64,000 nucleotides of DNA from positions 14,397-78,396 of the forward strand of contig CAYFXV010000001.1 of assembly GCA_964347265.1 (NCBI GenBank), in the 5' to 3' direction. How positions within the stretch are numbered: the stretch's first letter is position 1; each line of letters begins with the position of its first letter. Origin of the DNA: an uncultured archaeon (GTDB lineage Archaea; Aenigmatarchaeota; Aenigmatarchaeia; Aenigmatarchaeales; Aenigmatarchaeaceae). The position numbers and the translations under genes are program-made. The notes under the pieces were generated by a model, which saw only the letters and a list, made by a program, of their open reading frames with translations, ran no database searches and was not told the DNA's origin. This document shows positions 3,544 through 52,306 of this stretch, piece after piece.

Positions 3544-4695
3544 ATGCTCTATAAAAACCTTAATTTAAATCTTATTAAAATTCCTAAAGTTAGGGTTGCT
3601 ACTGGTCTTTATTCTCATTGGGACTCTATAGTTAAGATTGATGAAAATATTTTGAACTGGATTAAAAAGGCTTATAAAGAAGAACCAAAAGGTGTTATAC
3701 TTAATTCTTTAGAAGAGACAGTATTTACTATAAAAGAAGCCCTCGAAAATGAAGGTAAAGAATTTTTAATATCTGAAGATGTTTATAATAGATTAGATCA
3801 GTTTTTCTTAAAAAGAGAATTTAGAATTGGTGGTAATGGATATAACATGGGAAACATGTTATTTTTATCAGAAATTATTCCTGTTGTATCTTATCCTATA
3901 AGATCTAAAAAATTAATGGAAAATTCTCCTGAGTTTAAAATTGTTTTAAAGGGTGAATTAAAGAAACCAATAGAAACAATAAGGATAACAGATCAGGATT
4001 ATGATCACATAATTATTGAACTTGAAAATTCTAGACATATTTTGTCATGGGACCCAATGACATCTCGGGGAATTTTTGATTATGAATTTTTAAAATTTGC
4101 TTCTGATCCAAAAAATATAGATATATTGATTCTTGCATATGCCCATTTGTTATTGCCTGATTATAAAAAGAAAACAGATGCAATTATAGATTTCTTAAGT
4201 GAAAAAAGGCCAAGAACTCATCTAGAGTTTGGTCTAGGTTGCGAAGAGTCTATGAAATATGCTATGGAAAAATTCTCAGAAGATAAATGTTGTGAGTCTT
4301 GGGGATTAAATGAAATAGAATGCAAAGTTTACTTAAATGCAACATCTGAAAATAAAAATGATTTAATAGAGTCTGCTCTAAATGCTATTAAAGAATACAA
4401 TATAGATAGAGTCTGTGTTCATACACCTGAATTTGTTTTTTCTATTTCTAAATATGATATAATGAAGGAGTATAGAGCTCTAATAACTGCTTGTCTTTTT
4501 GCTGCAGCAAGAACTTTTGGTGATTTAAAATTAAAAATTGCTAAATCATTGCCAACAACATATGAACCTGTTAAAGAAAAAATAGAAGAATACAATTTTT
4601 GTTTAGTACCATGTTTAATAAATAAATTCCCTAGAGTTTTAACAGGAATTGGTGATGGTTTTGCTGCTATTCAAGCTGTTAAAGCTCTAAGCTGA
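3544..4695 (+). CDS. ADP-dependent sugar kinase (ADP-glucokinase/phosphofructokinase family).
   Basis: 383 aa. All three family motifs are present: RIGGNGYNMGNML (the GG...AN region), NEIE (NxxE), and the C-terminal GIGDGFAA (GXGD catalytic motif). Confidence 0.65.
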   Translation: MLYKNLNLNLIKIPKVRVATGLYSHWDSIVKIDENILNWIKKAYKEEPKGVILNSLEETVFTIKEALENEGKEFLISEDVYNRLDQFFLKREFRIGGNGYNMGNMLFLSEIIPVVSYPIRSKKLMENSPEFKIVLKGELKKPIETIRITDQDYDHIIIELENSRHILSWDPMTSRGIFDYEFLKFASDPKNIDILILAYAHLLLPDYKKKTDAIIDFLSEKRPRTHLEFGLGCEESMKYAMEKFSEDKCCESWGLNEIECKVYLNATSENKNDLIESALNAIKEYNIDRVCVHTPEFVFSISKYDIMKEYRALITACLFAAARTFGDLKLKIAKSLPTTYEPVKEKIEEYNFCLVPCLINKFPRVLTGIGDGFAAIQAVKALS

Positions 4696-4983
4696 TTTAG
4701 CAATTTTCTTAGCCAACCTGTTTAAAGAAGCTCTTAGAATGTCTCCTTTGATGTTTTTCTTCTTTATTCTTTTCATACTAGCAGCAAACTTTGGTCTATC
4801 CATTGTTCCTTTTAACCAAGCCTCAAAATCATTCCTATCATCTCTTAAATGAAACTCTAGGCTTTCTATAGGAACTGTCTTCAGGCATTCTGAAAATTCA
4901 GAAAGATTATGAGCAATCTTTCCTGTAAAGCCTGAAGTAGTACAAAACCAAAAAGCTTTATCATTTGATACATTTTTTCCCAT
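4687..4983 (-). CDS. Hypothetical protein.
   Basis: 98-aa ORF convergent with the kinase gene. Unknown family. Confidence 0.35.
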   Translation of the reverse strand: MGKNVSNDKAFWFCTTSGFTGKIAHNLSEFSECLKTVPIESLEFHLRDDRNDFEAWLKGTMDRPKFAASMKRIKKKNIKGDILRASLNRLAKKIAKSA

Positions 4984-5122
4984 TTTATCACCATTCTATG
5001 GATTTTTTAACATTTTTCATTATATGTTTAAATACAGTTTTTAATTAAAATTTAAATATGTAGTAAACCATATACATTACGTATAAACTATAAAGGATTC
5101 TAATATTTAAAGATGATGTAGA

Positions 5123-6268
5123 ATGAAGGTACTGATGCTTGGTTGGGAATTCCCACCAGCCAAAACTGGAGGCTTAGGTACCCATTGCTATGAACTTGTT
5201 AAAAATTTAAGTAAAAGAGGCGTTAGTGTTCTACTATTAATTCCAAAAAGAACAGGGAATAAAAAACATAATATACCAAATGTAGAAATAATAGAAGTAG
5301 GTTCTGTTGCCTTAAACCCTTATAATACAACAAAACCTGATGATAAATTTGAAAAAGGTTATGGATGGAACTTCTTTGAAGAAGTTAGAGCTTTTAACAA
5401 AAGATGCGTTGAAATAGCAAAAAACAAGAAATTCGATGTTGTTCATTGTCATGATTGGATGACAATAGATGCTGGAATTAAAATTAAAAAAACAACAGGA
5501 AAACCTCTAGTTTTCACTGTTCACTCAACAGAATATGATAGAACAGCTTATATCTATCCTATGAAATTTATAATTGATATTGAGAAAGGGGGGATTCAAA
5601 AAGCAGATTTGGTTATAACAGTTAGCAAAGGTATGAAAAAACAATTAATAGAGAAATATAATGCTGAAGAGAAAAAGATTATAGTAATATATAATGGAAT
5701 AAATCCCTCTAAATATTTTGGATTGATTAAGAAAGGTAATAAAGGAATTGTCCTTTTCTTAGGAAGGCTAACAAATCAAAAAGGACCTTATTTCTTTTTA
5801 CATACAGCAAAAAAGGTTTTAGAAAAAAGGAAAGATATCATGTTCATAGTTGCTGGTCAGGGAGAACAGATGCCAGAACTAATTAGAATTGCAATTGGAT
5901 TAGGTATTATGGATAATGTTGTTTTTACTGGTTATTTAACCGAAGAAGAGCTTTTACAAGCTTATTATATGGCTGATGTTTATGTTATGCCATCAGTAGC
6001 AGAACCATTTGGAATTACAGCATTAGAGGCAATTGCTTCAGGAACTCCTGTTATTGTTTCTAAAAATGCTGGTGTTGCAGAAAAAATATTGCATTGTTTT
6101 AAAGTGGATTTCTGGGACACCCATGAAATGGCTAATAAAATAATATGCTTATTGAAATACCCCGTTCTGGGAGAATGTATGAGAAAAAATTCTTATAAGG
6201 AGATAAGAAACTTTGGATGGGATAGAGTAGCTGAACAAACAATATCAGTTTATAGGAGAGCTATATGA
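5123..6268 (+). CDS. GT-B glycosyltransferase. It is probably a small archaeal (GT5/GT4-type) glycogen synthase.
   Basis: 381 aa. N-terminal MKVLMLGWEFPPAKTGGLGTH resembles the Pyrococcus glycogen synthase N-terminus. The C-terminal E-x7-E region is PSVAEPFGITALEAIASGTPVIV. Confidence 0.6.
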   Translation: MKVLMLGWEFPPAKTGGLGTHCYELVKNLSKRGVSVLLLIPKRTGNKKHNIPNVEIIEVGSVALNPYNTTKPDDKFEKGYGWNFFEEVRAFNKRCVEIAKNKKFDVVHCHDWMTIDAGIKIKKTTGKPLVFTVHSTEYDRTAYIYPMKFIIDIEKGGIQKADLVITVSKGMKKQLIEKYNAEEKKIIVIYNGINPSKYFGLIKKGNKGIVLFLGRLTNQKGPYFFLHTAKKVLEKRKDIMFIVAGQGEQMPELIRIAIGLGIMDNVVFTGYLTEEELLQAYYMADVYVMPSVAEPFGITALEAIASGTPVIVSKNAGVAEKILHCFKVDFWDTHEMANKIICLLKYPVLGECMRKNSYKEIRNFGWDRVAEQTISVYRRAI

Positions 6269-7440
6269 CATCGCTTTGTTTTTATTTTCAGGTTCACCAA
6301 CCAATGAGATTAAATAGATTTTCTATCTTTACTAAAGGTTCTCCTTATTTTGATGAAGAAAGAAACAAAGCGTATTTAAAAAAAGTTTCAAATAAATGTT
6401 ATTTACCAACTAACAAACTTCTTTTAGATCTAATAAATGAATATGAGAAAAAATTCAAAATTGCCTTTAGCTTAACTGGAGTTTTTGTAGAGCAATGTAA
6501 AAAATATGCACCTGAAGTTTTAGAATCTTTTAAAGAATTAACCAAGACTGGAAACGTTGAGTTTTTAAATGAAACTTATTATCATTCTTTAGCAGTCTTA
6601 TTTTCTGAAAAGGAATTTAAAGAACAAATAAAACTTCATAGGAAAATGATATTAGAATTGTTTAACCAAAAACCAAAAATTTTTAGAAATACTGAAGCAA
6701 TGTATTCAAACAGTATTGCCAAACTAATTGAAAAATTAGGATATAGAGGAATAATAACAGAAGGTCATGAAAGTATTCTAGGGTGGAGATCACCTAATTA
6801 CTTGTACTATCCAAATGGTTGTAAAAAAATTTCAGCCTTATTGAGGAACTATAAATTAAGTGATGATATTGGTTTTAGGTTTTCTGCTCGATGGTGGGAA
6901 GAATATCCACTGACTGCTGATAAATATTCGATATGGTTATCAAAATGTGAAGGTCATTGTATTAATGTATTCATTGATTATGAAACATTTGGAGAACATC
7001 AATGGGAAGATACAGGAATATTTAATTTCTTAAAATACTTACCATCTGAAATTTCTAAATATCCAAGTCTTGATTTTAAAACTCCATCTGAAATTATTAA
7101 ATCATATAAACCTGTTGGAGTCATAGATGTTCCACATACAATTTCTTGGGCAGATGTCCAAAGAGATCTTTCAGCCTGGCTTGAGAATGAAATGCAAAAA
7201 CTTGCTTTTGAACAAATGGCAAAACTTGAAGAACATGTTAAGAAAAACCCAGAATTGTTGCATACATGGAGATTACTTCAAACTTCTGATCATTTTTATT
7301 ATATGTGTACTAAGTGGTTTGCTGATGGTGATGTTCACAAATATTTTAATCCTTATAATTCTCCTTATGATGCATTTATTAACTTTATGAACATTTTACA
7401 AGACCTAAGAAGAAAGTTGGGTTTAAATGAAAGTAGATGA
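6265..7440 (+). CDS. GH57-family glycoside hydrolase (alpha-amylase, 4-alpha-glucanotransferase or branching-enzyme-like).
   Basis: 391 aa. N-terminal FYFQVHQPMR matches the GH57 region-I HQP signature. It overlaps the upstream GT gene by 4 nt, which suggests an operon. Confidence 0.5.
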   Translation: MTSLCFYFQVHQPMRLNRFSIFTKGSPYFDEERNKAYLKKVSNKCYLPTNKLLLDLINEYEKKFKIAFSLTGVFVEQCKKYAPEVLESFKELTKTGNVEFLNETYYHSLAVLFSEKEFKEQIKLHRKMILELFNQKPKIFRNTEAMYSNSIAKLIEKLGYRGIITEGHESILGWRSPNYLYYPNGCKKISALLRNYKLSDDIGFRFSARWWEEYPLTADKYSIWLSKCEGHCINVFIDYETFGEHQWEDTGIFNFLKYLPSEISKYPSLDFKTPSEIIKSYKPVGVIDVPHTISWADVQRDLSAWLENEMQKLAFEQMAKLEEHVKKNPELLHTWRLLQTSDHFYYMCTKWFADGDVHKYFNPYNSPYDAFINFMNILQDLRRKLGLNESR

Positions 7441-9373
7441 TCTAAAATGGGAATATCTACCAATAGAAAATCCTGATTGGGATTATGCTAGAAACCTCTT
7501 TACTGTTCTAAAAAGACCTCAAGCAACTTGGTCTCAATCTATTTTTTCTGTAAGACATAAAAACTTAATTGCACCTAACAGAGATTATAAATTTCAAGGA
7601 TTATATGTTTTTGTTAATAAGGAGTATTGGAAATTTTTAGATGCTATATTCTTTGGAATAAAAGAATTTCATATGGAACCTAAAAAAGTAATAATTTTTC
7701 CTTGGAAATCTGTTTATCAATATTTTGGAGATGGAATCGATGTTGATGTTTCTTATTATTTATCTAGAGATATGAGAGAAGGCATAACAGCAAAAATCAT
7801 ATTTGATATAAAGAACTCTTTTTTTAAAGAACTAATAATTAAACCTTTAGTTGATATTAGGAATATTTTTTCAGATTCAAAACCAGAAAAAATTAAAACT
7901 AAAGTTAATAACAACTCTTTGACTGCATCCTTTGGAAAAAATAAAATTTCTTTTTTTGTTAATGATAGTAGTATTTTAGCTGAAAAGGAGATTTTAAATT
8001 GGAAATATAAATTGGGAAGTGGATTTAGAGAAAATACTAGCAATGGTATAAGATTTGTTTCAGAATGGGCTAGGCCTGTATTCATTGGAGAAATTCACAA
8101 AAGATTATCTGGAGATGAAAAGATTTCTTTAATAATAAACTGTAATAGAAAAAATGATGATTTCGATGAAAATGAGGAAAAATTATATGTAAATCAAATA
8201 ACTAAGAAATTTAATTGTAAAAATGAATTGTTAGCAAGAATAATCTCATTGGATAGTTTTGGTATATTAGAAAAAAATATTTTAATACCAGAAGCCGGAG
8301 ATTTCTGGTTTAGACAAATATGGCTAAGGGATTTGTTAGAATCGTTAATTAATAATTTTCAAACTTTCATCAAATTAGATAACAAAAAAATAAATGAAAT
8401 AATAAAATGGATACTAAAACAACAAAATAGAAAAACTGGGAGATTCCCAAATTTCAAAAATAATTATAATTCTGTTGATACAAGTCTTTTATTCTTTATT
8501 TTAGCTGAAAAATACCTAAAACACTTCAATGATAAAACAATGGAAAAAAGAATTTTAGAAAGTTTTAATTTACTTTTTAAAAAATTTTCTGAAAATAAAA
8601 TAGAAAATAATGGGCCACCAGTAATTAAACATTATATGTTATACTCTATGCCATGGCATTCTTGGACAGACTCTAGAATTCCTTTCAGAGGAGATATGAT
8701 ATCTACAAGAATTCCACATGAATGGGTTAAAGAAGAGAATTTAGAAGAAATACTCAAACCATGTTTGTTACCTGAAATAAATGCAATGTTTATTAGAACT
8801 TTAAAAGTGGTGGAACTGTTAGGAAAAGATCTTGGAAATTTTTATAAAAAATCTTTAGAAAAATATAAAAAAATATTTCAAAATAATGATTTTCTATATT
8901 CTATAATTATTAACGATAAAAAAGATGCTACAGAAACTTCAATGGCATTGAATTCTGCTGTTTTGTTATATAATCATGTTTTTAATAAAAAAGATTTGGA
9001 AAAAATGTGGCCATCTGTTCAGAAATTATTAGTTAAAAGAAGTGGAAAATTGTTTGGTATTCTTTGTAGAAATATAAAAGATAGAATATATTACAACGAT
9101 TACCAATATCATGGAGCAGTTGTTTGGCCAAGAGACACTCCTTATCTCATTAGATACCTGAAAACAATTGGAAAAAATGATTTAGTAAAAGAAATTCTGG
9201 AAAGTAATTTAGAACATCAGATGAATGAATCTGGAATATTTTATTGTAATGAGTTATTTTCACTTCCTGAAGGAAAGAATCCATCCCCAACTAAAAGTGA
9301 TGGTAATCCTGTCCCAGTTAAGAACCCTATCCAATTATGGTCACATTTTTGTGATGATTATTTAAGAAGCTAA
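7427..9373 (+). CDS. Amylo-alpha-1,6-glucosidase / glycogen-debranching-enzyme-like six-hairpin glycosidase (GDE_C or GH15-like).
   Basis: 648 aa. It contains FWFRQIWLRDLLESL (a W.RD-type motif), and its size and operon context with glycogen enzymes fit. Confidence 0.45.
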   Translation: MKVDDLKWEYLPIENPDWDYARNLFTVLKRPQATWSQSIFSVRHKNLIAPNRDYKFQGLYVFVNKEYWKFLDAIFFGIKEFHMEPKKVIIFPWKSVYQYFGDGIDVDVSYYLSRDMREGITAKIIFDIKNSFFKELIIKPLVDIRNIFSDSKPEKIKTKVNNNSLTASFGKNKISFFVNDSSILAEKEILNWKYKLGSGFRENTSNGIRFVSEWARPVFIGEIHKRLSGDEKISLIINCNRKNDDFDENEEKLYVNQITKKFNCKNELLARIISLDSFGILEKNILIPEAGDFWFRQIWLRDLLESLINNFQTFIKLDNKKINEIIKWILKQQNRKTGRFPNFKNNYNSVDTSLLFFILAEKYLKHFNDKTMEKRILESFNLLFKKFSENKIENNGPPVIKHYMLYSMPWHSWTDSRIPFRGDMISTRIPHEWVKEENLEEILKPCLLPEINAMFIRTLKVVELLGKDLGNFYKKSLEKYKKIFQNNDFLYSIIINDKKDATETSMALNSAVLLYNHVFNKKDLEKMWPSVQKLLVKRSGKLFGILCRNIKDRIYYNDYQYHGAVVWPRDTPYLIRYLKTIGKNDLVKEILESNLEHQMNESGIFYCNELFSLPEGKNPSPTKSDGNPVPVKNPIQLWSHFCDDYLRS

Positions 9374-9398
9374 CTAATTAATGATATGAGGTATTGTT

Positions 9399-11189
9399 AT
9401 GAAAACCCAAGCAAATGTTTTGTTTGAAGTAGCTTTTGAGGTATGCAACAAAGTTGGAGGAATATATGCTGTTATAGAGTCAAAAGCTGCCCGAATGGTT
9501 GAATTATATAAAAATAATTACTTTGCTGTAGGACCTTATTATCCTGAAAGAGCTATTCTAGAAACCATAAAACAAAAACCTCCAAAATTTTGTGAAAAGG
9601 TTTTTTCTAGCTTAAATAAAAACGGAATTAAGTGTCATTATGGAAAGTGGATTGTAGAAGGAAAACCAAATGTCATACTAGTTGAATTTAATGATCTATT
9701 AGAAAAAGTTAATAATATAAAAACAGAATTATGGAAAAAATATAAAGTTGATTCTTGGGGAACTAAGTTTGATTTTGAAGAACCTGTTGCTTGGTCAACA
9801 GCTGCTGGAATGCTAATAGAAAAACTTTTTCCATGTTTTGAAAATAAAAATGTTGTTGCTCATTTTCATGAATGGTTATCAGGAGCAGCTTTATTATATC
9901 TAAAAGATAAAGTCCCTACTGTTTTTACCACACATGCAACAATGTTAGGAAGAACAATAGCTGGATGGGGAGAAGATTTGTATAAAGAGGTTAATGATGC
10001 AATTTATACTAATACTCCTTTAGATCCAAAAAGACCTCACAAATATGGAGTTCAAGCAAAACACCAAATGGAAAAAGCTTGCGCTGAAAATTGTACTATT
10101 TTTTCAACAACATCTGAAATAACATCCAAAGAAGCAATCTACATACTAGGAAAAATACCTGATATAATATTACCAAATGGTTTAGATATAGAAAGATTTC
10201 CTACAATGGAAGAGTTTGCTTTATTACACAGAAAATACAGAGAAAAAATCAAGCATTTTCTAAGTGCCTATTTTAATCCTTATTATGAAACAGATTTGTG
10301 GGATGCAATGGTTTTTTTCACATCTGGAAGATATGAATTCAGAAATAAAGGATATGATGTTCTAATAGAAGCTTTAGGAAAATTGAATGAAAGAATGAAA
10401 AAAGAAAAAATTAAAAAAAATATTTTTGTTTTCTTCTATGTTCCTAGAGGCGATATTAAAGATAATATTGAAATCATGGAAAGTACTCAATTATATGATG
10501 ATATGAGAGAAACCGTAGACGATGAATTGCCTTGGATAGAAGAAATGATTTTGGATTCGCTTGCAAAAGGCAAAATGCCAAAAATGAGAGTTATACTTAA
10601 AAAAGAGTTTTTAGAGGAATGTAAAAGAAAAATAGCTGCCTTTAAAAGAAAAGGCAATCCTCCTTTTTCTGCATATATTGTTGATGAAGATGATTTAATT
10701 GTAAATGCTTTTAAGGAAAACAGGCTCTTGAATAGAATTGATGATAAAGTTAAAGTAATATTTTATCCTTCTTATTTATCAACAACAGACAGATTATTAG
10801 GATTAAACTATGAACAAGCTGTTCAAGGTTCTCATTTAGGCGTGTTTCCTTCATATTATGAGCCTTGGGGATATACCCCCCTTGAGTGTGCTGCAAATGG
10901 TGTTTTGTCTATAACTTCTGATTTTGCTGGCTTTGGAATATTTATTAAACAGAATTCTGATCAAAGTAAAAACCCTGGAATAGGGGTTTTAGAAAGAGAT
11001 AGCAAAAGTCGTGAAGAAGTTATTGAAAAATTATATGAAATGTTATGGAACATTGTTATTATGTCTAGAAAAGAAAGAATACCTAAGAAAGCTCAAGCAA
11101 AAGACTTAGCTTCACTAGCTGATTGGAAAATATTAATTAAAAATTATGTTCAAGCACATAACATGGCTTTAGAAAGATTTAAGAAATAA
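9399..11189 (+). CDS. Glycogen synthase, GT3 (eukaryote-type) family.
   Basis: 596 aa. N-terminal LFEVAFEVCNKVGGIYAVIESKA closely matches the fungal/animal glycogen synthase N-terminus (LFE.A.EV.N.VGGIY.V..SKA). HFHEWLSGAALLYLK matches the HFHEW block. Confidence 0.7.
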   Translation: MKTQANVLFEVAFEVCNKVGGIYAVIESKAARMVELYKNNYFAVGPYYPERAILETIKQKPPKFCEKVFSSLNKNGIKCHYGKWIVEGKPNVILVEFNDLLEKVNNIKTELWKKYKVDSWGTKFDFEEPVAWSTAAGMLIEKLFPCFENKNVVAHFHEWLSGAALLYLKDKVPTVFTTHATMLGRTIAGWGEDLYKEVNDAIYTNTPLDPKRPHKYGVQAKHQMEKACAENCTIFSTTSEITSKEAIYILGKIPDIILPNGLDIERFPTMEEFALLHRKYREKIKHFLSAYFNPYYETDLWDAMVFFTSGRYEFRNKGYDVLIEALGKLNERMKKEKIKKNIFVFFYVPRGDIKDNIEIMESTQLYDDMRETVDDELPWIEEMILDSLAKGKMPKMRVILKKEFLEECKRKIAAFKRKGNPPFSAYIVDEDDLIVNAFKENRLLNRIDDKVKVIFYPSYLSTTDRLLGLNYEQAVQGSHLGVFPSYYEPWGYTPLECAANGVLSITSDFAGFGIFIKQNSDQSKNPGIGVLERDSKSREEVIEKLYEMLWNIVIMSRKERIPKKAQAKDLASLADWKILIKNYVQAHNMALERFKK

Positions 11190-11195
11190 AAATTC

Positions 11196-11591
11196 TCAAG
11201 CTCTCATATCAGGAAGTTCCGGTAATCGAACACTTAAAGATCTAGTAGGTATTCTATTCATTATCATTCTGTTTAGGTTTTTAATAGTTATTATTTCTTT
11301 TAATCTCCTACTGGTTTTAAATGGAACAGCATGATATACTCTTCTAGGTTTTTCATTATCCAGATGTCCTTTTTTTGAACTAACATAACCTTTTTCTTCT
11401 AAAGTGTGTAATAATGGATAAATTTCAGAGGGACTAAAAAGAACTCCATACTTTTCTCTAAAATCGGTAAGAAGCTTATAACCATGAGTGGGTTCTTTCA
11501 ATATATTTCTTAAAAATATTTCTTCCATATTGGCCTTCAAATCTTTTCTAACTAATTGTTTTATTGTTTCCATTCTCGATATTGTTTCCAT
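11196..11591 (-). CDS. PadR-family transcriptional regulator.
   Basis: 131 aa. THGYKLLTDF...YPLLHTLEEKGYV is a PadR wHTH signature. Confidence 0.65.
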   Translation of the reverse strand: METISRMETIKQLVRKDLKANMEEIFLRNILKEPTHGYKLLTDFREKYGVLFSPSEIYPLLHTLEEKGYVSSKKGHLDNEKPRRVYHAVPFKTSRRLKEIITIKNLNRMIMNRIPTRSLSVRLPELPDMRA

Positions 11592-11679
11592 ATTTTGTCA
11601 CCAATTAATAGTCATAATACTATTATGGAATAAATTGTAGAAAAAGAAAATTTACCCTTACGGCAGTAAAAAATACTTA

Positions 11680-12114
11680 TTAGTATTTTTTCAAATGTCC
11701 ATGAATATACTTCTCAAATATTGTAAGAAATACTAATTTATCTCTTCCAGTATTAATAACTCTATGATACTTGTTAGGGAGAACTGTAACCAAATCTCCT
11801 TTTTTAACATTAATCTTCTTCTTATCAACAATTATATATCCTCTACCTTTCAAAAAAATATAAACTTCTTCAGCATTGTGTTTGTGTCCCCTAGTCATTT
11901 TAAATTCAGAATTGACTTTTCCAGGATATAGAAAATTCATACAAACCATAAGTCTTTTCAAACCAGTTTTTTTAACAGGCAAGTCAATTAAAACTTCGTT
12001 AATATCGTTTTTATGACCTTTAATGTTTTTGTAGATATTTTTACCTTTTTCGATCGCGTCTTTAACTTTCATTTTTAATGTCTTACCTTTGAACTTATTG
12101 ATGTTAAATTTCAT
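11680..12114 (-). CDS. Cupin-domain protein, probably a cupin-type glucose-6-phosphate isomerase (cPGI).
   Basis: 144 aa. MTRGHKHNAEEVYIFLKG matches the cPGI signature T.GH.H....E.Y. It sits beside the TIM and FBPA/P genes. Confidence 0.5.
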   Translation of the reverse strand: MKFNINKFKGKTLKMKVKDAIEKGKNIYKNIKGHKNDINEVLIDLPVKKTGLKRLMVCMNFLYPGKVNSEFKMTRGHKHNAEEVYIFLKGRGYIIVDKKKINVKKGDLVTVLPNKYHRVINTGRDKLVFLTIFEKYIHGHLKKY

Positions 12115-12779
12115 TTCATCCCCATTATTAATTCTTCCATAGCTTTTTCAACATTTCCTGCTTTGACTACACCAGAAGCTAATATAACTCCTTTTGTTCC
12201 AAGTTCAATTGCTTTTTTAACATCTTCTCTTGTTTTAATCCCTGCTCCGCAAAGAACATAGGTTCTTGGTGAAATTTTCTTAACATCATTAACAGATTTT
12301 TTTATTATTTCTGGTTTAGCAGTTGAAACAGAAACATCACCTCCAATTAATTCTGGAGGTTCAATTGCAATAAAATCTGGTTTAAATTCTGCTATTTTTT
12401 TTACTTCATTATTATCTTTAGCACAAACAATCGACACTAATTCATATTCTTCACATAAGTCAACACATTTCTTAATATCTTCATGCGGAATCCTTCTTTC
12501 AGAATGATTTATTATAGAACCGACTCCGCCTAATTCCTTTACTTCTTTAGGAAGCAAAGCTCCTGTATGTGCACCTGGTTCATAAGGATCTAGATGTTGA
12601 GAAATAGTTGAAGTAATTTTGGCAACTTCATTTAACAAAGGAGTAGGCGGTGCAATTAAAATAGTTACATTATATTTATTAGACAACTCTTTAGCAACTT
12701 CTGCAAACTTTATAGGCTTTTCTCCAAGAACTTGTTCATACTCTTTCAAATTTATTATTAATATAGGAAGTTTCATCAT
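12111..12779 (-). CDS. tpiA: Triosephosphate isomerase (archaeal short type).
   Basis: 222 aa. It has the INHSERR motif, the GAGIKT phosphate-binding region and typical archaeal TIM length. Confidence 0.85.
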   Translation of the reverse strand: MMKLPILIINLKEYEQVLGEKPIKFAEVAKELSNKYNVTILIAPPTPLLNEVAKITSTISQHLDPYEPGAHTGALLPKEVKELGGVGSIINHSERRIPHEDIKKCVDLCEEYELVSIVCAKDNNEVKKIAEFKPDFIAIEPPELIGGDVSVSTAKPEIIKKSVNDVKKISPRTYVLCGAGIKTREDVKKAIELGTKGVILASGVVKAGNVEKAMEELIMGMK

Positions 12780-13870
12780 ATATCCTGGAATCTATTTTTT
12801 AGTTTTTCCTTTACTGCAGGTAAGGTTGTGTATTCCATTTCATCTGCACCTAACCTATGTGGTTCGAATGGTCCTTGTCTTCTTAGAATATCTGCAATTT
12901 TTAATGCTTCTTGTCTAGCTTTGTCAAATGATTTATCCTTAAGCATGTCCCTTGATGTACCTAACATTCCATTGGCTAATTGAAAACCCAATGCCATAAC
13001 TCTTGGCGGTCCATCAAATCTTGAGGGCGTAGCATCTTCAACAGCCACAGGCATTAAAGGACCGTGATGACTTCCTCTCATCCAACCAGCAACAATCCAT
13101 GGATGTGCAAATCCTTCTAAAACTTCTCCAACTGCTGGCAAACCATGTTGCGCTCTTACAAACATAACTGGATCATCTTTTCCAACATATTTTCCTGCAA
13201 TTAAACTTAATCTACTTGTAGATGTGGAAACTGCATACAATTTGTCTGAAGTTCTGTAAACATGTTTTATAACATATCTTCCAGGTTGTCCAATTAATGC
13301 TAACAAATCATAAATCTCTTCAGGACATTTTAATTCAACTTTTTTATTTTCTATAACATCATGAACCTCGAATGTAAATCCTCCATGCATATGAGGATCA
13401 ATAACTAGACCTGCTGTTGAGAATGGGTCTGCAAACATTTTGTATAATGGAATATTCCATGCTCCTGGCTCTGTTTTATCTGCCATAAAAATAATAACTG
13501 GTTCTGATTTTCTTTCTTCGAATTCCAGTTCTGCAACACCTGGTCCCATTCCTTTTAGATTCCCTGAGAAAGTATCTTTTAATAAATCTTGACCAGCTCC
13601 ATAAAGTTTTAGTTCTTTAGCTTTTTCTGTGCATTTTTTAAAAGTATTCCAAGCCATAGCATGCACATCTTTATTATCAACACCATGTTGATGAGTCATT
13701 ATTAGTTGTAAATCATCTCCACATCCTGTAACATAAAAATCTATTAAAAAACCTTTGTTTTTCTCGTCTTGAAGAATGTTTCTTGCCATTTCAAGAATTT
13801 CTGGATGACTTGAAGAATGTCCAACGTATCCTCCTATGTCAGCTTTGATAACACTTAGCGTAATTTTCAT
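12776..13870 (-). CDS. fbp: Bifunctional fructose-1,6-bisphosphate aldolase/phosphatase (FBPase class V).
   Basis: 364 aa. N-terminal MKITLSVIKADIGGYVGHSSSHPE...DDLQLIMTHQHG is highly characteristic of archaeal FBPA/P. A TATA-like TTTATATTA lies about 25-35 nt upstream on the minus strand. Confidence 0.9.
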   Translation of the reverse strand: MKITLSVIKADIGGYVGHSSSHPEILEMARNILQDEKNKGFLIDFYVTGCGDDLQLIMTHQHGVDNKDVHAMAWNTFKKCTEKAKELKLYGAGQDLLKDTFSGNLKGMGPGVAELEFEERKSEPVIIFMADKTEPGAWNIPLYKMFADPFSTAGLVIDPHMHGGFTFEVHDVIENKKVELKCPEEIYDLLALIGQPGRYVIKHVYRTSDKLYAVSTSTSRLSLIAGKYVGKDDPVMFVRAQHGLPAVGEVLEGFAHPWIVAGWMRGSHHGPLMPVAVEDATPSRFDGPPRVMALGFQLANGMLGTSRDMLKDKSFDKARQEALKIADILRRQGPFEPHRLGADEMEYTTLPAVKEKLKNRFQDI

Positions 13871-13913
13871 ACATTACAAATTGTAGAGGTTTAATATAAA
13901 GATTTCACAAAAA

Positions 13914-13940
13914 TGTGCGGAGGGCAGGATTTGAACCTGC
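13914..13940 (-). repeat. 27-nt tRNA 3'-end fragment (T-arm plus 3' acceptor strand), copy 1 of a direct repeat.
   Basis: The minus strand reads GCAGGTTCAAATCCTGC-CCTCCGC-A, a canonical T stem-loop plus 3' acceptor strand. No complementary 5' acceptor (GCGGAGG) lies upstream, so this is not an intact tRNA. Confidence 0.6.
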
Positions 13941-13992
13941 TGAAAAAGACAACCTACGGTTTTCTTCCTTAACCATCTTTCCCTTCATAAAA

Positions 13993-14454
13993 TCATTTTT
14001 TATTAATTAATACTTCCAATTCTCTTAAAGATAAACCGTCTTCTCTATAATGGGGAAAACCTTTTTCTTCTGCAAATTTCATAGCTTCGAATAATTCTCT
14101 ACCAAATCCTCTTAAAACAGTTGTTAAATCAGTATCTCTTTCATCGTTTATTCTATATCTTTTTGAAGCCCAATGCAAAAATTTATCTTTTATTCTACCA
14201 AAAGATGAAGTTTTTACATCTTTTACAATATGAGAAAGTTCTGAAGCTAAAACACCTTTTTTAACCGATTCGCTTGCAGATTTTACTGTTTCATCAACCT
14301 CTAGAAAAAATCCTTCTGGATCTAATTCTCCATATTCTGCTAAAGCATCACCTAATTTCTTATATTCTATTTGTATATCACAATCTAATAAATCTATGTA
14401 TCCTTTTATTATTACTGTGTCTAAAAGTCGTCTTAGTTTTCCCATAATTTTCAA
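13993..14454 (-). CDS. Hypothetical protein flanked by the tRNA 3'-end repeats.
   Basis: 153-aa ORF with no recognisable motif. It lies exactly between the two 27-nt repeat copies. Confidence 0.4.
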   Translation of the reverse strand: MKIMGKLRRLLDTVIIKGYIDLLDCDIQIEYKKLGDALAEYGELDPEGFFLEVDETVKSASESVKKGVLASELSHIVKDVKTSSFGRIKDKFLHWASKRYRINDERDTDLTTVLRGFGRELFEAMKFAEEKGFPHYREDGLSLRELEVLINKK

Positions 14455-14514
14455 TAGAATACTAATCTTTAAATCACTTTTGCTGCCCTCAAGTCAGCGG
14501 TGAAGAACATGAGC

Positions 14515-14541
14515 TGTGCGGAGGGCAGGATTTGAACCTGC
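14515..14541 (-). repeat. 27-nt tRNA 3'-end fragment, copy 2 of the direct repeat.
   Basis: Identical 27-mer TGTGCGGAGGGCAGGATTTGAACCTGC on the + strand. As with copy 1, no 5' half is adjacent. Confidence 0.6.
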
Positions 14542-14601
14542 GAACCCATTACTAGAGCAATACAAATATATTAAAGTACAAAGTATTCTTATTAGAGAAA
14601 A

Positions 14602-16071
14602 ATGTTTGATTCAATAAAATTTGTTAAGGACAATAAAACTGTTTACAAAATTCTAATTAATGGAAGATGGAAAGAATCTTCTAATAAAAAAACTTTTGGA
14701 ATAAAAAACCCAGCCGACGGATCATTAATAGCAGAAGTTCAGAAAGCTACTAAAAAAGACGCTGAAAATGCTGTTAAAGCTGCCTTTAATGCAAAATCAA
14801 AAATAGCAAACATGGATGCTTCTGAAAGAGGAGACATTTTAGATAAAATGGGAAATTTATTAGAACAACACAAAGAAGAATTCATAGACATTATTTGTAA
14901 GGAGTCTGGAAAAACAAGAAAACTAGCTCAAGGAGAACTTCATGCTTCAATAGGAAGACTACATTATGCATCTGATGAAGCAAAAGAAATAAGAGGAGAA
15001 CTAATAAAAGGAGATATTGCAGGTAAAAGAAATTCAATGGGAATTGTTATTAGACAACCTTTAGGAGTTTTATTAGCTATAACACCATTTAATTATCCTT
15101 TGTTTACAGGAATTGCAAAAATAGCTCCTGGAATAGCAATTGGAAACTCAATTGTGGTTAAACCTGCAAGCGCTGATCCTATATGCTTGTTAATGTTTGC
15201 AAAAATTATGCAAGAAGCAGGAATACCAGATGGTGTAGTAAATATAGTTACAGGTTCAAGTTCAGAAATAGGAGATTATTTGTGTTCTCATCCTAAGATT
15301 GATATGATTTCATTTACAGGAAGCAGTGCAGTTGGAAAACATATAACATCTATTGCTGGAATGAAAAAATTACATTTAGAATTAGGAGGAAAAGCACCAG
15401 CAATTGTTTTAGAAGATTGTAACTTTGATATAGCTGTTAAAGAAGTTGCAATTGGTTCTTTAAAGTTCTCAGGCCAAAGATGCGATTCAATAAGTAGGGT
15501 GTTAGTTGTAGAACCAATAGCTGATAAATTTGTTAATGCCATGTTAGAAGAAATTAAAAAATGGAAACTTGGAAACCCTAGAGATCCTGAGACTGTTGTT
15601 GGGCCTTTAATAAATGAAGCTGCTGCCAAAAAAGTTGAGGAATTAGTTAATGATGCTGTTAAAAAGGGTGCAAAACTTTTATATGGTGGGAAAAAATATG
15701 ATCGTGGATATTTTGAACCAACAGTTCTAGATTTTGTTAATAGAGATATGAGAATTGCTTGGGAAGAAACATTTGGACCTGTGGTTACGATTATAAGAGT
15801 TAAAGATTATGAAGAAGCAATTAAACTTGCAAATGAATCTGAATATGGATTAGATGCTTGTATATTTACAAAAGATATTGATAAAGCATTTGATGCTGCG
15901 CAAAGAATTGAAGCTGGTTCTGTTCATATAAATGCTCATCCAACTCATGGTTTAGGAGTGTTCCCATTTGGTGGAGATGAAAGCTCTGGAGTAGGAAGAG
16001 AAGGAATTAAATATAGCATAGAAGATATGTCAAAAGTTCATGTTATGGTTTTGCATTCTCACAAAGAATGA
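14602..16071 (+). CDS. Aldehyde dehydrogenase family protein, probably a non-phosphorylating glyceraldehyde-3-phosphate dehydrogenase (GAPN).
   Basis: 489 aa with ALDH motifs ELGGKAP and FSGQRCDS (catalytic Cys). The GAPN assignment rests on the glycolytic neighbourhood. The internal minus ORF 15288..15629 is spurious. Confidence 0.7.
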   Translation: MFDSIKFVKDNKTVYKILINGRWKESSNKKTFGIKNPADGSLIAEVQKATKKDAENAVKAAFNAKSKIANMDASERGDILDKMGNLLEQHKEEFIDIICKESGKTRKLAQGELHASIGRLHYASDEAKEIRGELIKGDIAGKRNSMGIVIRQPLGVLLAITPFNYPLFTGIAKIAPGIAIGNSIVVKPASADPICLLMFAKIMQEAGIPDGVVNIVTGSSSEIGDYLCSHPKIDMISFTGSSAVGKHITSIAGMKKLHLELGGKAPAIVLEDCNFDIAVKEVAIGSLKFSGQRCDSISRVLVVEPIADKFVNAMLEEIKKWKLGNPRDPETVVGPLINEAAAKKVEELVNDAVKKGAKLLYGGKKYDRGYFEPTVLDFVNRDMRIAWEETFGPVVTIIRVKDYEEAIKLANESEYGLDACIFTKDIDKAFDAAQRIEAGSVHINAHPTHGLGVFPFGGDESSGVGREGIKYSIEDMSKVHVMVLHSHKE

Positions 16072-17124
16072 TTATTTCATTTTAAAATTTAATATTTCAT
16101 CTGGAGTTAATGCTTTGTTATAAATTCTAAATGAATCTATTATTCCATTAAAAGCCTCTCCAGCACTTGAAGGTATAGCACCTATACCAAAATCATTTGT
16201 CATATCCATTACATAATTATATGAACCGGTTTCAACAGACTTTCCATTTCTGTATATTATCCAATTTCCTGTTATGGTTTCGTATGTCATAACAAAATGT
16301 GTCCAAATATCATAACCCCAACCACTCGACCATACAGACATAGCTGACCAAGTTGTTCCATCACCTAAATAACAATACATAGTTGTGGAACCAGAAAAGA
16401 AATAACATGTACTAAAATATCTAGAAAGGAAAGGTCGTTGCATACTACCTTTTTCTCTCATATTAAACCAGAATTCTATTGTAAAACCATCTGGAAAATT
16501 CCCAAATTTATTTATTGCTACATAATCATCTATTCCATCAAATTCTAAAGCCTTACCAAATTTACCATTAACCCATTTGGGACATTCAGAAGTAGGGGGG
16601 TCTGAACAAATAGTAGTATAATCATATAATGTTCCATCATTTTCATATCCAGATTTATCATGTGCAATTGTTCCTCTACCTTCATCAAAATCTAAAGCTA
16701 AAAGAGCAGAATTATGTAAAAGAGATTCTACTCTCTGAACAATTTGTAAACTTGGATTAGATATTTTTAAGTCATAATCTCCTATACTTATTCCTAATAT
16801 ATCAACTGTTATAGTTCCTATTTCTCCTTTTCTTATAGTTTCAGGTGTCATGTTAAATTCAAGAGGTTCATCATCCAAGAAAACATTTAAACTGTCATTA
16901 ACTATTACTCCGCTTCCACAATTTTTTATATAAATATTATTTTTATGGATTGAATCTACTATCATACAAGTAGAGAGAATCTCTCTTGTTCTTGTTGTTC
17001 TTTCAGTTCCAGATTCTGTTAATTCTTTTACTGTCCCAAAAGTAAATAACCAAAAAAGGGTTGTTAGGAATATTAAAATTAACAAGACTAATAGTAATGT
17101 TACAATCGCTGAAAGACCACGCAT
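16072..17124 (-). CDS. Type IV pilin-like protein with a LamG/concanavalin-like lectin domain.
   Basis: 350 aa. N-terminal MRG/LSAIVTLLLVLLILIFL resembles an archaeal class III (prepilin) signal peptide. The C-terminal region (DGIDDYVAINKFGNFPDGFTIEFWFN...) is LamG-like. Confidence 0.5.
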   Translation of the reverse strand: MRGLSAIVTLLLVLLILIFLTTLFWLFTFGTVKELTESGTERTTRTREILSTCMIVDSIHKNNIYIKNCGSGVIVNDSLNVFLDDEPLEFNMTPETIRKGEIGTITVDILGISIGDYDLKISNPSLQIVQRVESLLHNSALLALDFDEGRGTIAHDKSGYENDGTLYDYTTICSDPPTSECPKWVNGKFGKALEFDGIDDYVAINKFGNFPDGFTIEFWFNMREKGSMQRPFLSRYFSTCYFFSGSTTMYCYLGDGTTWSAMSVWSSGWGYDIWTHFVMTYETITGNWIIYRNGKSVETGSYNYVMDMTNDFGIGAIPSSAGEAFNGIIDSFRIYNKALTPDEILNFKMK

Positions 17125-17155
17125 AATTATAATTTAAAACAAGGTAATTATATTT

Positions 17156-18466
17156 ATGAGTATTTTTAGGGCTTATGATATTCGTGGAATTTATGGAAAA
17201 GATTTAACAGAAAAAGTCATGAAAAATATAGGAAAGGCTTTAGGAACTTTTCTTGGTGGTAACAAAAATGTTTGTGTTGGGTATGACACTAGAAAGTCAT
17301 CTAAAAAATTATTTGAAGCATTTTCTTCAGGATTAACTTCTACAGGTTGTAATGTTATATCTCTGGGATTAGTAGCAAACCCTATGCTATATTTTTATGC
17401 TTGGAAAAACAAAATTTTTGGAGCCTTAATAACTGCAAGCCATAATCCAAAAAATTGGAATGGTTTAAAAATGGTGAGACCAAATGGAGTCAGTTTCATA
17501 GAAGAGATTAAATTAATAGAGAATACATATGATTCCAAAAAATTTATTAAAGGTAGGGGAAGGATAACTAAAGCAGATGTATTTAAAAATTATAAAAAAT
17601 TTTTAGAAAGTAAGTTTGGGGTTATTAGAAAAAAAGTTGTCGTTGAGTGTTTTGGAGCAGCTGCTGTTACTGCTCTGCCAATTCTAAGAAGTTTAGGACT
17701 TGATGTAATAAGTCTTCATGACAAACCTGATGGAAATTTCTTTGGGTTTACGAGACCTGAACCAAAAGGAGAAAATCTAAATATGCTTAAAAAAGCTGTT
17801 AAAAGAGAAAAAGCTGATTTTGGAGTTGCATTTGATGGAGATGGTGACAGATCTGTTTTTGTTGATAACAGAGGTAGAGAACCTAATGTAAGCTCAGTAA
17901 TAGCAACTTTTGTTGATTATATATTAAAGAAAAAGAGGGGGTCTATTCTTTTAACAGCTGATTGTGCAAGCGAAATTGAAGATATTGCCAAAGAGTTGAG
18001 AGGAAAAACTATTTGGTGGAGAGTTGGACATGGATTTATAGAAGAAAAAAGTGCAAAAGAAAAAGTTTTATTTGCTGGAGAACAAAGTTCTCATCTTTAT
18101 TTCAATGAATTTTATCCATTCTCTGATGGCATACTTGCAACTATTTATTTAGCTAAAATACTTTCAGAAAGTAAAAAAACACTATCGGAATTACTTGACG
18201 AAATAAAAATACATCCAATAAAAAAATTATATATTAATGTTGGAAGCGATGAAAACAAAATAAGAATTATAGAAAGTTTAAAGAAAAGATATCCTAATGC
18301 TCTAGATATAATGGATGGCATTAAAATGAAATTAGATGATGTAGAATGGGTTCTAATAAGAGCAAGTCAAACAAATCCAGAAATAAATTTATGCGTGGAA
18401 GCAAGGAATGAAAACAGGATGAAAAACATTATTAGAGAATACATTAAATTAGTTAAACAAATTTAA
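17156..18466 (+). CDS. Phosphoglucomutase/phosphomannomutase (alpha-D-phosphohexomutase).
   Basis: 436 aa. It has the active-site loop TASHNPKNWNGLK (TASHNP), the metal-binding FDGDGDR, and overall domain order. Confidence 0.85.
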   Translation: MSIFRAYDIRGIYGKDLTEKVMKNIGKALGTFLGGNKNVCVGYDTRKSSKKLFEAFSSGLTSTGCNVISLGLVANPMLYFYAWKNKIFGALITASHNPKNWNGLKMVRPNGVSFIEEIKLIENTYDSKKFIKGRGRITKADVFKNYKKFLESKFGVIRKKVVVECFGAAAVTALPILRSLGLDVISLHDKPDGNFFGFTRPEPKGENLNMLKKAVKREKADFGVAFDGDGDRSVFVDNRGREPNVSSVIATFVDYILKKKRGSILLTADCASEIEDIAKELRGKTIWWRVGHGFIEEKSAKEKVLFAGEQSSHLYFNEFYPFSDGILATIYLAKILSESKKTLSELLDEIKIHPIKKLYINVGSDENKIRIIESLKKRYPNALDIMDGIKMKLDDVEWVLIRASQTNPEINLCVEARNENRMKNIIREYIKLVKQI

Positions 18467-51355: not shown

Positions 51356-51385
51356 AAATAATTTTTAGAATAATTAGATAATAAA

Positions 51386-51458
51386 TGGACCCGTCGGGAC
51401 TTGAACCCGAAACCTCCACCATGCCAAGGTGGCGATCTACCAATTGATCTACAGGCCC
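51386..51458 (-). tRNA. tRNA-Ala (anticodon GGC).
   Basis: Reverse-complement fold: acceptor GGGCCTG/CGGGTCC with a G3:U70 identity pair, anticodon loop TTGGCAT, T-loop TTCAAGT. Confidence 0.8.
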
Positions 51459-51466
51459 AAAAATAA

Positions 51467-51539
51467 TGGGCCAGGGGAGATTCGAACTCCCGACCTCCAC
51501 GGTGTAAGCGTGGCGTCATAACCACTAGACCACCGGCCC
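51467..51539 (-). tRNA. tRNA-Val (anticodon TAC).
   Basis: Reverse-complement fold: acceptor GGGCCGG/CTGGCCC, anticodon stem CCACG/CGTGG with loop CTTACAC, T-loop TTCGAAT. Confidence 0.8.
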
Positions 51540-51587: not shown

Positions 51588-52151
51588 ATGTTTATGAGAC
51601 TTTCAAGAAAATTTTACTCAAGAAACACAAAAACAGTTGCAAAAGAATTGTTAGGAAAAATCTTAGTTCATAAAAAATGTAAAGGAAAGATAGTTGAAAC
51701 TGAAGCTTATTTTGGAAAGTATGATCCTGCTTCTCATGCCTATTGTAAAATTACAAAAAGAAATATAATAATGTACCAGAAACCCGGAACTGCTTATGTT
51801 TATTTTACTTATGGAAATCATTGGATGTTTAATGTTGTTACAGAGAAAAAAGGTATACCTGGAGCTGTTTTAATAAGAGCTGTAGAACCATTAAATGGAA
51901 TTGAAATAATGAAAAGAAGAAGAAAAATAAATAATATTAAAAATCTTACAAATGGTCCTGGTAAATTAACTAAAGCTTTTAGTATTAATAAAAAACATAA
52001 TTGTCTAGACTTAACAAAAAGTAATTTGTTTATAGAAAATTCTAATGAAAAGTTTAAAATTGTTAAAACAACTAGAATTGGTCTTTCTAAAGGTCAGGAA
52101 AAATTATTAAGATTTTATATAAAAGATAATGGATTTGTTTCTAAAAAATAA
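51588..52151 (+). CDS. DNA-3-methyladenine glycosylase (MPG/AAG family).
   Basis: 187 aa. ETEAYFGKYDPASHAY...GTAYVYFTYGNHWMFNVV...GAVLIRAVEP matches the MPG family. Confidence 0.8.
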   Translation: MFMRLSRKFYSRNTKTVAKELLGKILVHKKCKGKIVETEAYFGKYDPASHAYCKITKRNIIMYQKPGTAYVYFTYGNHWMFNVVTEKKGIPGAVLIRAVEPLNGIEIMKRRRKINNIKNLTNGPGKLTKAFSINKKHNCLDLTKSNLFIENSNEKFKIVKTTRIGLSKGQEKLLRFYIKDNGFVSKK

Positions 52152-52155
52152 GTGA

Positions 52156-52269
52156 TGGGCGAGGTGAGATTTGAACTCACGACCTCCAGTATTTACAGAA
52201 CGCAGCCACAAAAAATGACTAACGTCATTTTATAAGACTGGCGCTCTAACCAAACTAAGCTACCCGCCC
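52156..52269 (-). tRNA. Intron-containing tRNA. The anticodon is TAT (tRNA-Ile) if the intron is at the canonical 37/38 position.
   Basis: Reverse complement: acceptor GGGCGGG/CTCGCCC, D-arm GCTT..GAGC, anticodon stem CCAGT/ACTGG enclosing CTTATA plus a ~39-nt insert (with hairpin ATGAC-GTTA-GTCAT), T-arm GTGAG-TTCAAAT-CTCAC. Confidence 0.65.
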
Positions 52270-52306
52270 AATACCAATTTATTTATTGCTAAACTAATTT
52301 AAAAAT

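Follow-up and report, generated by a model that had tools for sequence, protein, structure and literature searches.

A tRNA-Ile(UAU) gene with a 39-nt anticodon-loop intron and a probably relaxed splice motif in an Aenigmatarchaeota genome

Results

Organisation of the tRNA gene and its surroundings

The window analysed here is a 64-kb stretch (64,000 nt, 30% G+C) of the genome of an uncultured member of the Aenigmatarchaeota, and it encodes a thermosome, Pelota, an S-layer protein, a type IV pilus, and glycogen and gluconeogenesis enzymes. On its minus strand, positions 52156–52269 correspond to a complete pre-tRNA gene of 114 nt, identified with both the Rfam tRNA covariance model RF00005 and an ARAGORN intron search, from which a mature tRNA of 75 nt is predicted. 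Read from 52269 to 52156, the 5′ part of the minus-strand DNA is GGGCGGG-TA-GCTT-AGTTTGGTTA-GAGC-G-CCAGT-CTTATA; this is followed by an insert and then by ACTGG-AGGTC-GTGAG-TTCAAAT-CTCAC-CTCGCCC-A. The corresponding RNA is GGGCGGG UA GCUU AGUUUGGUUA GAGC G CCAGU CUUAUA(40 nt)ACUGG AGGUC GUGAG UUCAAAU CUCAC CUCGCCC A.

The RF00005 match spans exactly 52156–52269 and model positions 1–71 of 71, at 59.9 bits, where the gathering threshold is 29 (E = 1.9e-10 over the 64 kb searched), and its alignment places a 40-nt insertion after CUUAUA (position 37). ARAGORN with intron search reported tRNA-Ile(tat) with a 39-nt intron, and in default mode it did not detect the gene. No other Rfam family matched the tRNA region or the intron at E values up to 1. 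All four arms pair, their stems contain only standard pairs, and the invariant bases U8, A14, G18, G19, A21, U33, U54-U55-C56, and A58 are present; the terminal CCA is not encoded. The original prediction of a minus-strand gene with four arms and an insert of about 39 nt in the anticodon loop therefore agrees with the model match in coordinates, arms, and insert length.

Under the splice register that we favour (38/39, see below), the 5′ exon covers tRNA positions 1–38 (40 nt, 52230–52269, minus strand; its end moves to 52231 if the gene is spliced at 37/38). The predicted 39-nt intron occupies 52191–52229 on the same strand, or 52192–52230 for a 37/38 splice. The anticodon U34-A35-U36 (52232–52234, minus) is the same in either plausible register. 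The 3′ exon (52156–52190, minus) contributes the ACUGG strand of the anticodon stem, the variable loop AGGUC, the T arm, the 3′ strand of the acceptor stem, and the discriminator base A73.

Oligo-T tracts terminate archaeal RNA polymerase, and a run of six T residues on the minus strand (52143–52148), 8 nt past the discriminator, is a likely transcription stop. Upstream, an AT-rich spacer of 37 bp (52270–52306) separates the tRNA 5′ end from the start codon (52307) of a divergently oriented PDDEXK/HTH gene, so the promoters of both genes must share this spacer. It holds a candidate TATA box, TTTTTAAATT (52296–52305, minus), 27–36 nt upstream of the mature 5′ end in this genome of 30% G+C. A scan for sigma-70 promoters and hairpin terminators gave nothing of relevance to an archaeon.

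Genes for tRNA-Val(UAC) and tRNA-Ala(GGC) lie 7 nt apart on the minus strand at 51385–51539, about 620 nt downstream of the Ile gene, and this neighbourhood of Ile(UAU), Val(UAC), and Ala(GGC) is shared with Candidatus Aenigmarchaeum subterraneum (L032). The other tRNAs of the window carry anticodons starting with G, as is typical of archaea. Elsewhere in the window, positions 3544–18466 hold a carbohydrate-storage and gluconeogenesis cluster with genes for an ADP-PFK/GK-like protein, two glycosyltransferases, a GH57 protein, glycogen synthase, FBP aldolase/phosphatase, an aldehyde dehydrogenase, and a phosphoglucosamine/phosphoglucomutase, which amounts to a comparatively rich sugar metabolism by the standards of DPANN genomes.

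Anticodon and splice site

The 46 nt between the two strands of the anticodon stem allow only three 7-nt loops after splicing. These are CUUAAAU, with the anticodon UAA and U at position 38; CUUAUAU, with the anticodon UAU and U38; and CUUAUAA, with the anticodon UAU and A38. We scanned every pair of cut sites under the archaeal rule of two 3-nt bulges separated by a 4-bp helix, with one cut behind the second base of either bulge. The rule proved self-consistent on homologues with a perfect motif; in L014, for example, the helix CUUA:UAAG with an outer helix of 5 bp gives the product loop CUUAUAA.

Across all registers of the window gene, the sole 4-bp helix that yields a 7-nt loop is formed by U33–U36 (52232–52235, minus) and GUAA (52193–52196, minus), the latter followed by AU and then A39 in an imperfect 3′ bulge. 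With this geometry, cleavage would follow A38 at the 5′ site and precede A39 at the 3′ site, removing 39 nt and leaving the loop CUUAUAA. The 5′ site lies in a 3-nt bulge (AA/A, the slash marking the cut), and the 3′ site (AU/A) in a 2×3 internal loop opposite U31 and C32. Around the central helix of 4 bp, the outer helix has no base pair in register and the inner helix has a single pair followed by a U-C mismatch. The U33–U36:GUAA helix is paired in 100% of the 24 distinct sequences of the clade, in which pair 33:44 changes from U:A to U:G.

The strict hBHBh′ motif at 37/38, with two 3-nt bulges, a 4-bp helix, and in-register flanks, is absent from the window gene because C32–A35 cannot pair with the 3′ end of the intron; in this register, only two of the four positions pair with UGUA. 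What the register scan revealed instead is a relaxed motif, a 4-bp helix with one recognisable bulge, as described for bulge-helix-bulge (BHB) introns of the HBh′, hBH, and BHL types (PMC5829648). On this model the junction is probably 38/39, with a relaxed motif of the HBh′ type, and the exact junctions that we give are predictions from the geometry of this helix.

The 48 homologues in other genomes and the window gene (n = 49) were classified by their motifs. The strict hBHBh′ motif at 37/38 (CUUA:UAAG or UGAG) is found in 22 of these sequences, whereas 19, the window gene included, have the UUAU:GUAR helix that leads to 38/39 and lack an outer helix in register. Among all sequences collected, including the listed matches of a looser pattern in metagenomes, the loop CUUAUAA results in 133 of the 141 that have a 4-bp helix, and the gene of one intron-less homologue (L006) carries this loop as such.

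The most serious competitor of the 38/39 junction is a splice of the same tRNA-Ile(UAU) at the canonical position 37/38, giving the loop CUUAUAU with U38, which we regard as possible but the less likely of the two. This is by far the commonest intron position in archaeal tRNAs. Besides being the position in the 22 strict-motif genes, it is that of the ARMAN-2 precursor (PMC3239211), and the two registers give an identical product in 20 of the 24 clade sequences, whose introns end in A. Against it stand the failure of C32–A35 to form a helix, the fact that UUAU:GUAA predicts an exact 7-nt loop solely at 38/39, and the behaviour of position 38 itself. Under the 38/39 model this base is A in all 24 clade sequences; a 37/38 splice would turn the conserved A38 into a variable base, with U in four of them, the window gene among these.

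The anticodon UAU is secure, judging from the gene sequence and its homologues, since both helix-supported registers retain it and ARAGORN likewise returned Ile(tat). The original prediction of an intron-containing tRNA that carries UAU after splicing thus stands, and its concern that a non-canonical splice site might yield another anticodon is answered by the 38/39 site, which still gives UAU. Its placement of the intron at 37/38 fares less well, as the only helix points one nucleotide further downstream, and the BHB motif expected there is not the strict one.

A second arrangement that resembles a strict BHB was considered and rejected. In the window gene and in L012, L038, and L046, exon bases G26–A29 can pair with intron UGGC next to an outer helix of 6 bp. 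In the window gene and L012 the resulting cuts would fall at 31/32 and inside the intron, deleting the anticodon and leaving a 12-nt loop. We judged this pairing coincidental because single bases that it needs vary in relatives.

Structure of the intron

The intron contains a local hairpin, AUGAC-GUUA-GUCAU (52215–52228, minus), that is paired in 100% of the 24 clade sequences and shows covariation, with U:A replaced by G:U in L054 and L152 and G:C replaced by A:U in L012. When the cloverleaf is enforced, the best predicted fold (−37.8 kcal/mol) combines a helix of U33–A37 with U-G-U-A-A, a long-range intron helix (h′) made of the strands GACGU/GCGUU and AGUCAU/GUGGCU, and a U5 loop. This fold is more stable than those of shuffled introns (z = −2.8), its energy being reached by 4 of 300 shuffles. 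The long-range helix is paired at 94% in the alignment of 24 sequences, and its changes are one-sided only. The local hairpin and the long-range helix are mutually exclusive, and of the two the hairpin has the better covariation.

On this comparative evidence we take the hairpin to be real, yet it is other than the helix that defines the splice sites; indeed, it competes with the long-range helix that a proper 5′ bulge would need. The suggestion that the hairpin belongs to a BHB splice motif is accordingly retained as to its presence and covariation and dropped as to its role, which falls to U33–U36:GUAA.

Immediately after the hairpin, the intron has a T6 run of its own (52210–52215, minus), and a run of A residues lies upstream; at least four of the T residues are invariant in 24 of 24 clade sequences. 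Together, the A run, hairpin, and T6 run resemble an intrinsic terminator inside the tRNA gene.

Two further ideas about the intron were examined. Its 5′ half is no convincing diverged duplicate of exon positions 22–37, as local alignment scores were no better than those of shuffles. The intron of haloarchaeal pre-tRNA-Trp is a box C/D guide, for which the boxes RUGAUGA and CUGA are diagnostic; direct reading of the intron of the window gene, AAUGACGUUAGUCAUUUUUUGUGGCUGCGUUCUGUAAAU, revealed neither UGAUGA nor CUGA.

Complementarity between exon and intron

The intron segment GGCUGCGUUCU (52197–52207, minus) can pair either with the 5′ half of the intron, as part of h′, or with exon residues A21–C32 (52236–52247). 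The second pairing dominates the unconstrained minimum-energy fold predicted for the precursor (−45.6 kcal/mol, about 8 kcal/mol below the cloverleaf fold), in which GGCUGCGUUCU and exon A21–C32 form 11 bp around a bulged C27 and neither the D stem nor the anticodon stem survives. Across the 24 clade sequences, 98.9% of the pairing between the segment and exon 21–32 is kept, and one pair changes in a compensatory way (C28:G to U:A). Moreover, a related motif, G-R-C followed by CGYUCU, recurs in many other DPANN tRNA-Ile(UAU) introns that differ widely in length; in many short ones it lies directly 3′ of the 5′ splice site, and in these mini-introns exon base 30 tracks intron base 4, G30 occurring with C and, in four sequences, C30 with G.

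These observations would fit an intron element that is functional and conserved, pairing with exon 21–32 and holding the precursor in an alternative, splicing-incompetent fold, a proposal to which we give little credence. The exon–intron duplex alone is not significant, as 36 of 300 shuffled introns do as well. The UCU of the G-R-C/CGYUCU motif is in any case part of the splice helices, and the pattern used in the metagenome search itself demanded CGYUCU. In three sequences with A26, CGCUCU is unchanged and there is no compensation; the compensatory events are few, and each may reflect a single lineage. Were the element nonetheless functional, the exon–intron fold would open the D stem and set the UAU anticodon on a long helix, which could gate splicing. 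By analogy with yeast tRNA-Ile(UAU), such a fold might also serve as a substrate for an intron-dependent modification of the anticodon.

Usage and decoding of AUA

Codons were counted in 72 non-overlapping ORFs, which together span 90% of the window. Isoleucine is encoded most often by AUA, with 1008 of 19136 codons and 52.9% of all Ile codons. To see which residues stand at these positions in other proteins, homologues at most 85% identical were aligned, leaving out the homologues' own AUA codons. Residues aligned with AUA of the window were I in 31%, V in 25%, L in 16%, and M in 6% of cases, resembling those aligned with AUU (I 40%, V 26%, L 13%, M 4%), whereas 67% of the residues aligned with AUG were M. 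AUA is read as isoleucine in this genome and, at this frequency, needs an efficient decoder. The earlier reading of the tRNA as an isoleucine decoder of AUA is thereby strengthened, AUA being both the dominant Ile codon and one whose positions align like those of AUU.

The tRNA itself has features consistent with isoleucine identity, namely A73, A37, the anticodon, and its family resemblance. Charging by IleRS, the enzymes involved, and any modification of U34 are points that we infer.

In most archaea, the reader of AUA is tRNA-Ile2(CAU), in which TiaS turns C34 into agmatidine. It is conceivable that this genome also has tRNA-Ile2(CAU) and TiaS and that the UAU tRNA reads AUA alongside the agmatidine route, as a redundant or auxiliary decoder, and does not replace it; we think this rather improbable. 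The evidence against it is weak throughout: ARMAN lineages with tRNA-Ile(UAU) were described as being without both tRNA-Ile(CAU) and TiaS (PMC3239211), and the 64-kb window has no CAU tRNA among its 7 tRNAs and no TiaS domain in its ORFs of at least 300 aa. Among the 168 fetched loci, no archaeal tRNA-Ile(GAU) or CAU tRNA of the same lineage was found, and a literature search for TiaS in DPANN returned nothing usable.

Conservation and functionality

The gene order tRNA, PDDEXK/HTH gene, MscL, thermosome, and pilus genes recurs in relatives at 72–95% protein identity. Identity of the syntenic proteins is 95% to L100, about 82% to both L095 and L164, and 72% to L012, a MAG titled Candidatus Aenigmatarchaeota; this gene order points to an Aenigmatarchaeota-like DPANN archaeon. 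A protein of the window whose gene lies 38 bp from the tRNA has an identical counterpart on contig WVZI01000016.1 of MAG GCA_011772535.1. The 24 aligned clade sequences hardly vary in their exons and have a conserved intron architecture. Pair 28:42 of the anticodon stem changes from C:G to U:A in three of the 24 sequences, and the T stem is GUGAG/CUCAC in the window gene and GAGAG/CUCUC or AAGAG/CUCUU in relatives. Because the syntenic locus is kept in relatives with compensatory changes in the stems, we consider the tRNA gene functional.

A decaying, non-functional tRNA-like pseudogene that has retained an insert is very unlikely in the face of these orthologues at the same locus, with their near-invariant exons, compensatory stems, and conserved intron architecture, and of a codon that makes up 5.3% of the total and must be decoded. 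Three observations could be cited in its favour: the splice motif is imperfect, the T6 run after the intron hairpin could halt transcription, and the predicted alternative fold beats the cloverleaf in stability.

Least tenable of all is an intron located further 5′, after position 33, 34, or 35, with the loop CUUAAAU and a UAA (Leu) tRNA: on the sequence alone, two to four loop bases plus the last three to five bases of the insert also make a 7-nt loop, but the register scan revealed no 4-bp helix for these registers, the 5-nt variable loop is at odds with the long variable arm of tRNA-Leu, and the strict-motif homologues and the intron-less L006 are all UAU.

Homologues and their annotation

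ARAGORN with intron search labelled several homologous tRNA-Ile(UAU) genes as Ser(tga), Tyr(ata), or Arg (L007, L010, L014, L018, L033, L041, L040, L042, and L045) because it places the intron arbitrarily; owing to this inconsistency on homologues, its isotypes and intron positions were not relied on. Default bacterial-mode finders miss the gene altogether, and an AUA-rich genome could then seem to be without a decoder for AUA.

On direct reading, many of the homologous tRNA-Ile(UAU) genes have another insert, located in the variable region or the T-arm region, and several have no recognisable 5′ part of the acceptor or D stem upstream of A21. Genes with such oddities include L083, L084, L097, L164, and L167; L002–L004, L009, L011, L028, and others; and L016, L023, L025, L027, and L047. 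Their sequences suggest multiple-intron or split genes.

The metagenome sequences L114/L151, L130/L153, and L052/L104 are intron-less, bacterial-looking tRNAs with a CTTATA loop, and L114 encodes CCA. They were matched because of a chance CGYTCT in the T arm or acceptor, and are possibly bacterial tRNA-Ile(UAU) genes unrelated to the gene of the window.

Discussion

The locus very probably represents a functional archaeal gene for the minor tRNA-Ile(UAU), with a 114-nt precursor, a 39-nt intron in the anticodon loop, a relaxed BHB motif probably at 38/39, and a role in reading AUA. In the pathway that we propose, U33–U36 of the precursor would pair with GUAA near the 3′ end of the intron, and this 4-bp helix would direct the splicing endonuclease to cut two nucleotides past each of its strands, behind A38 at the 5′ site and ahead of A39 at the 3′ site. 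Ligation would then produce a 75-nt tRNA with the loop CUUAUAA, which, after addition of CCA and charging by IleRS, would read AUA, the commonest isoleucine codon of this AT-rich genome.

Genes of this kind are not confined to a few lineages. Exact matches to the 18-mer TAGAGCGCCAGTCTTATA, whose last bases are the anticodon, were found in 48 species-representative genomes. The lineages named are Aenigmatarchaeota, Woesearchaeota, Micrarchaeota, Nanohalarchaeota, and Nanoarchaeota, the remainder being unnamed archaea, and the titles that name a lineage are all DPANN except for three labelled Methanosarcinales. The view that tRNA-Ile(UAU) is rare and restricted to groups such as Nanoarchaeota and Korarchaeota, from which the original prediction started, is outdated by this count and by the ARMAN genomes reported in 2011 (PMC3239211). 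Since the UAU route is widespread across DPANN, the tRNA is a weak taxonomic marker, and the hope of using it as one is not borne out.

The gene performs the same task as the archaeal tRNA-Ile2(CAU)/TiaS route, which is to read AUA and not AUG; that route starts from C34, whereas the gene described here has T at position 34. In eukaryotes, the precursor of tRNA-Ile(UAU) is cut by the Sen endonuclease through a ruler mechanism, and the intron of the yeast gene is required for pseudouridylation of the anticodon. Like the window gene, the eukaryotic tRNA is a minor Ile tRNA for AUA with an anticodon starting in U; its mature anticodon is pseudouridine-A-pseudouridine (PMC6000648, PMC3575796). Mycoplasma mobile, which is without the cytidine-modifying enzyme, likewise reads AUA with a tRNA-Ile2(UAU), in which U34 was shown to be unmodified (PMC3575796); the gene of M. 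mobile is bacterial and intron-less.

Among archaea, Nanoarchaeum equitans and Korarchaeum cryptofilum also encode tRNA-Ile(UAU) (PMC6000648, PMC3895270), with an intron in the K. cryptofilum gene (PMC6000648); they belong to other phyla, and we liken them to the window gene by their published descriptions. Closer counterparts are the three ARMAN lineages, which have tRNA-Ile(UAU) and are without tRNA-Ile(CAU) and TiaS (Fujishima et al, 2011, PMC3239211). Like the window gene, theirs come from DPANN archaea, read AUA with UAU, and have the anticodon loop interrupted by an intron, and Micrarchaeota sequences in our collection carry the same exon 18-mer. The best-studied example is the precursor of ARMAN-2 (Candidatus Micrarchaeum acidiphilum); its 25-nt intron lies at 37/38 in a strict hBHBh′ motif, and the epsilon2 endonuclease cleaves this precursor in vitro (PMC3239211).

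The gene described here is one more of this widespread and already described kind. It differs from the ARMAN-2 gene in having an intron of 39 nt and not 25 nt, most likely located at 38/39 and not 37/38, and a relaxed rather than strict motif, features that are common to about 40% of its homologues. That so many genes appear to carry an intron one nucleotide further downstream with a relaxed motif would fit the loop-bearing, broad-specificity splicing endonucleases (EndAs) reported for many DPANN lineages (PMC5829648).
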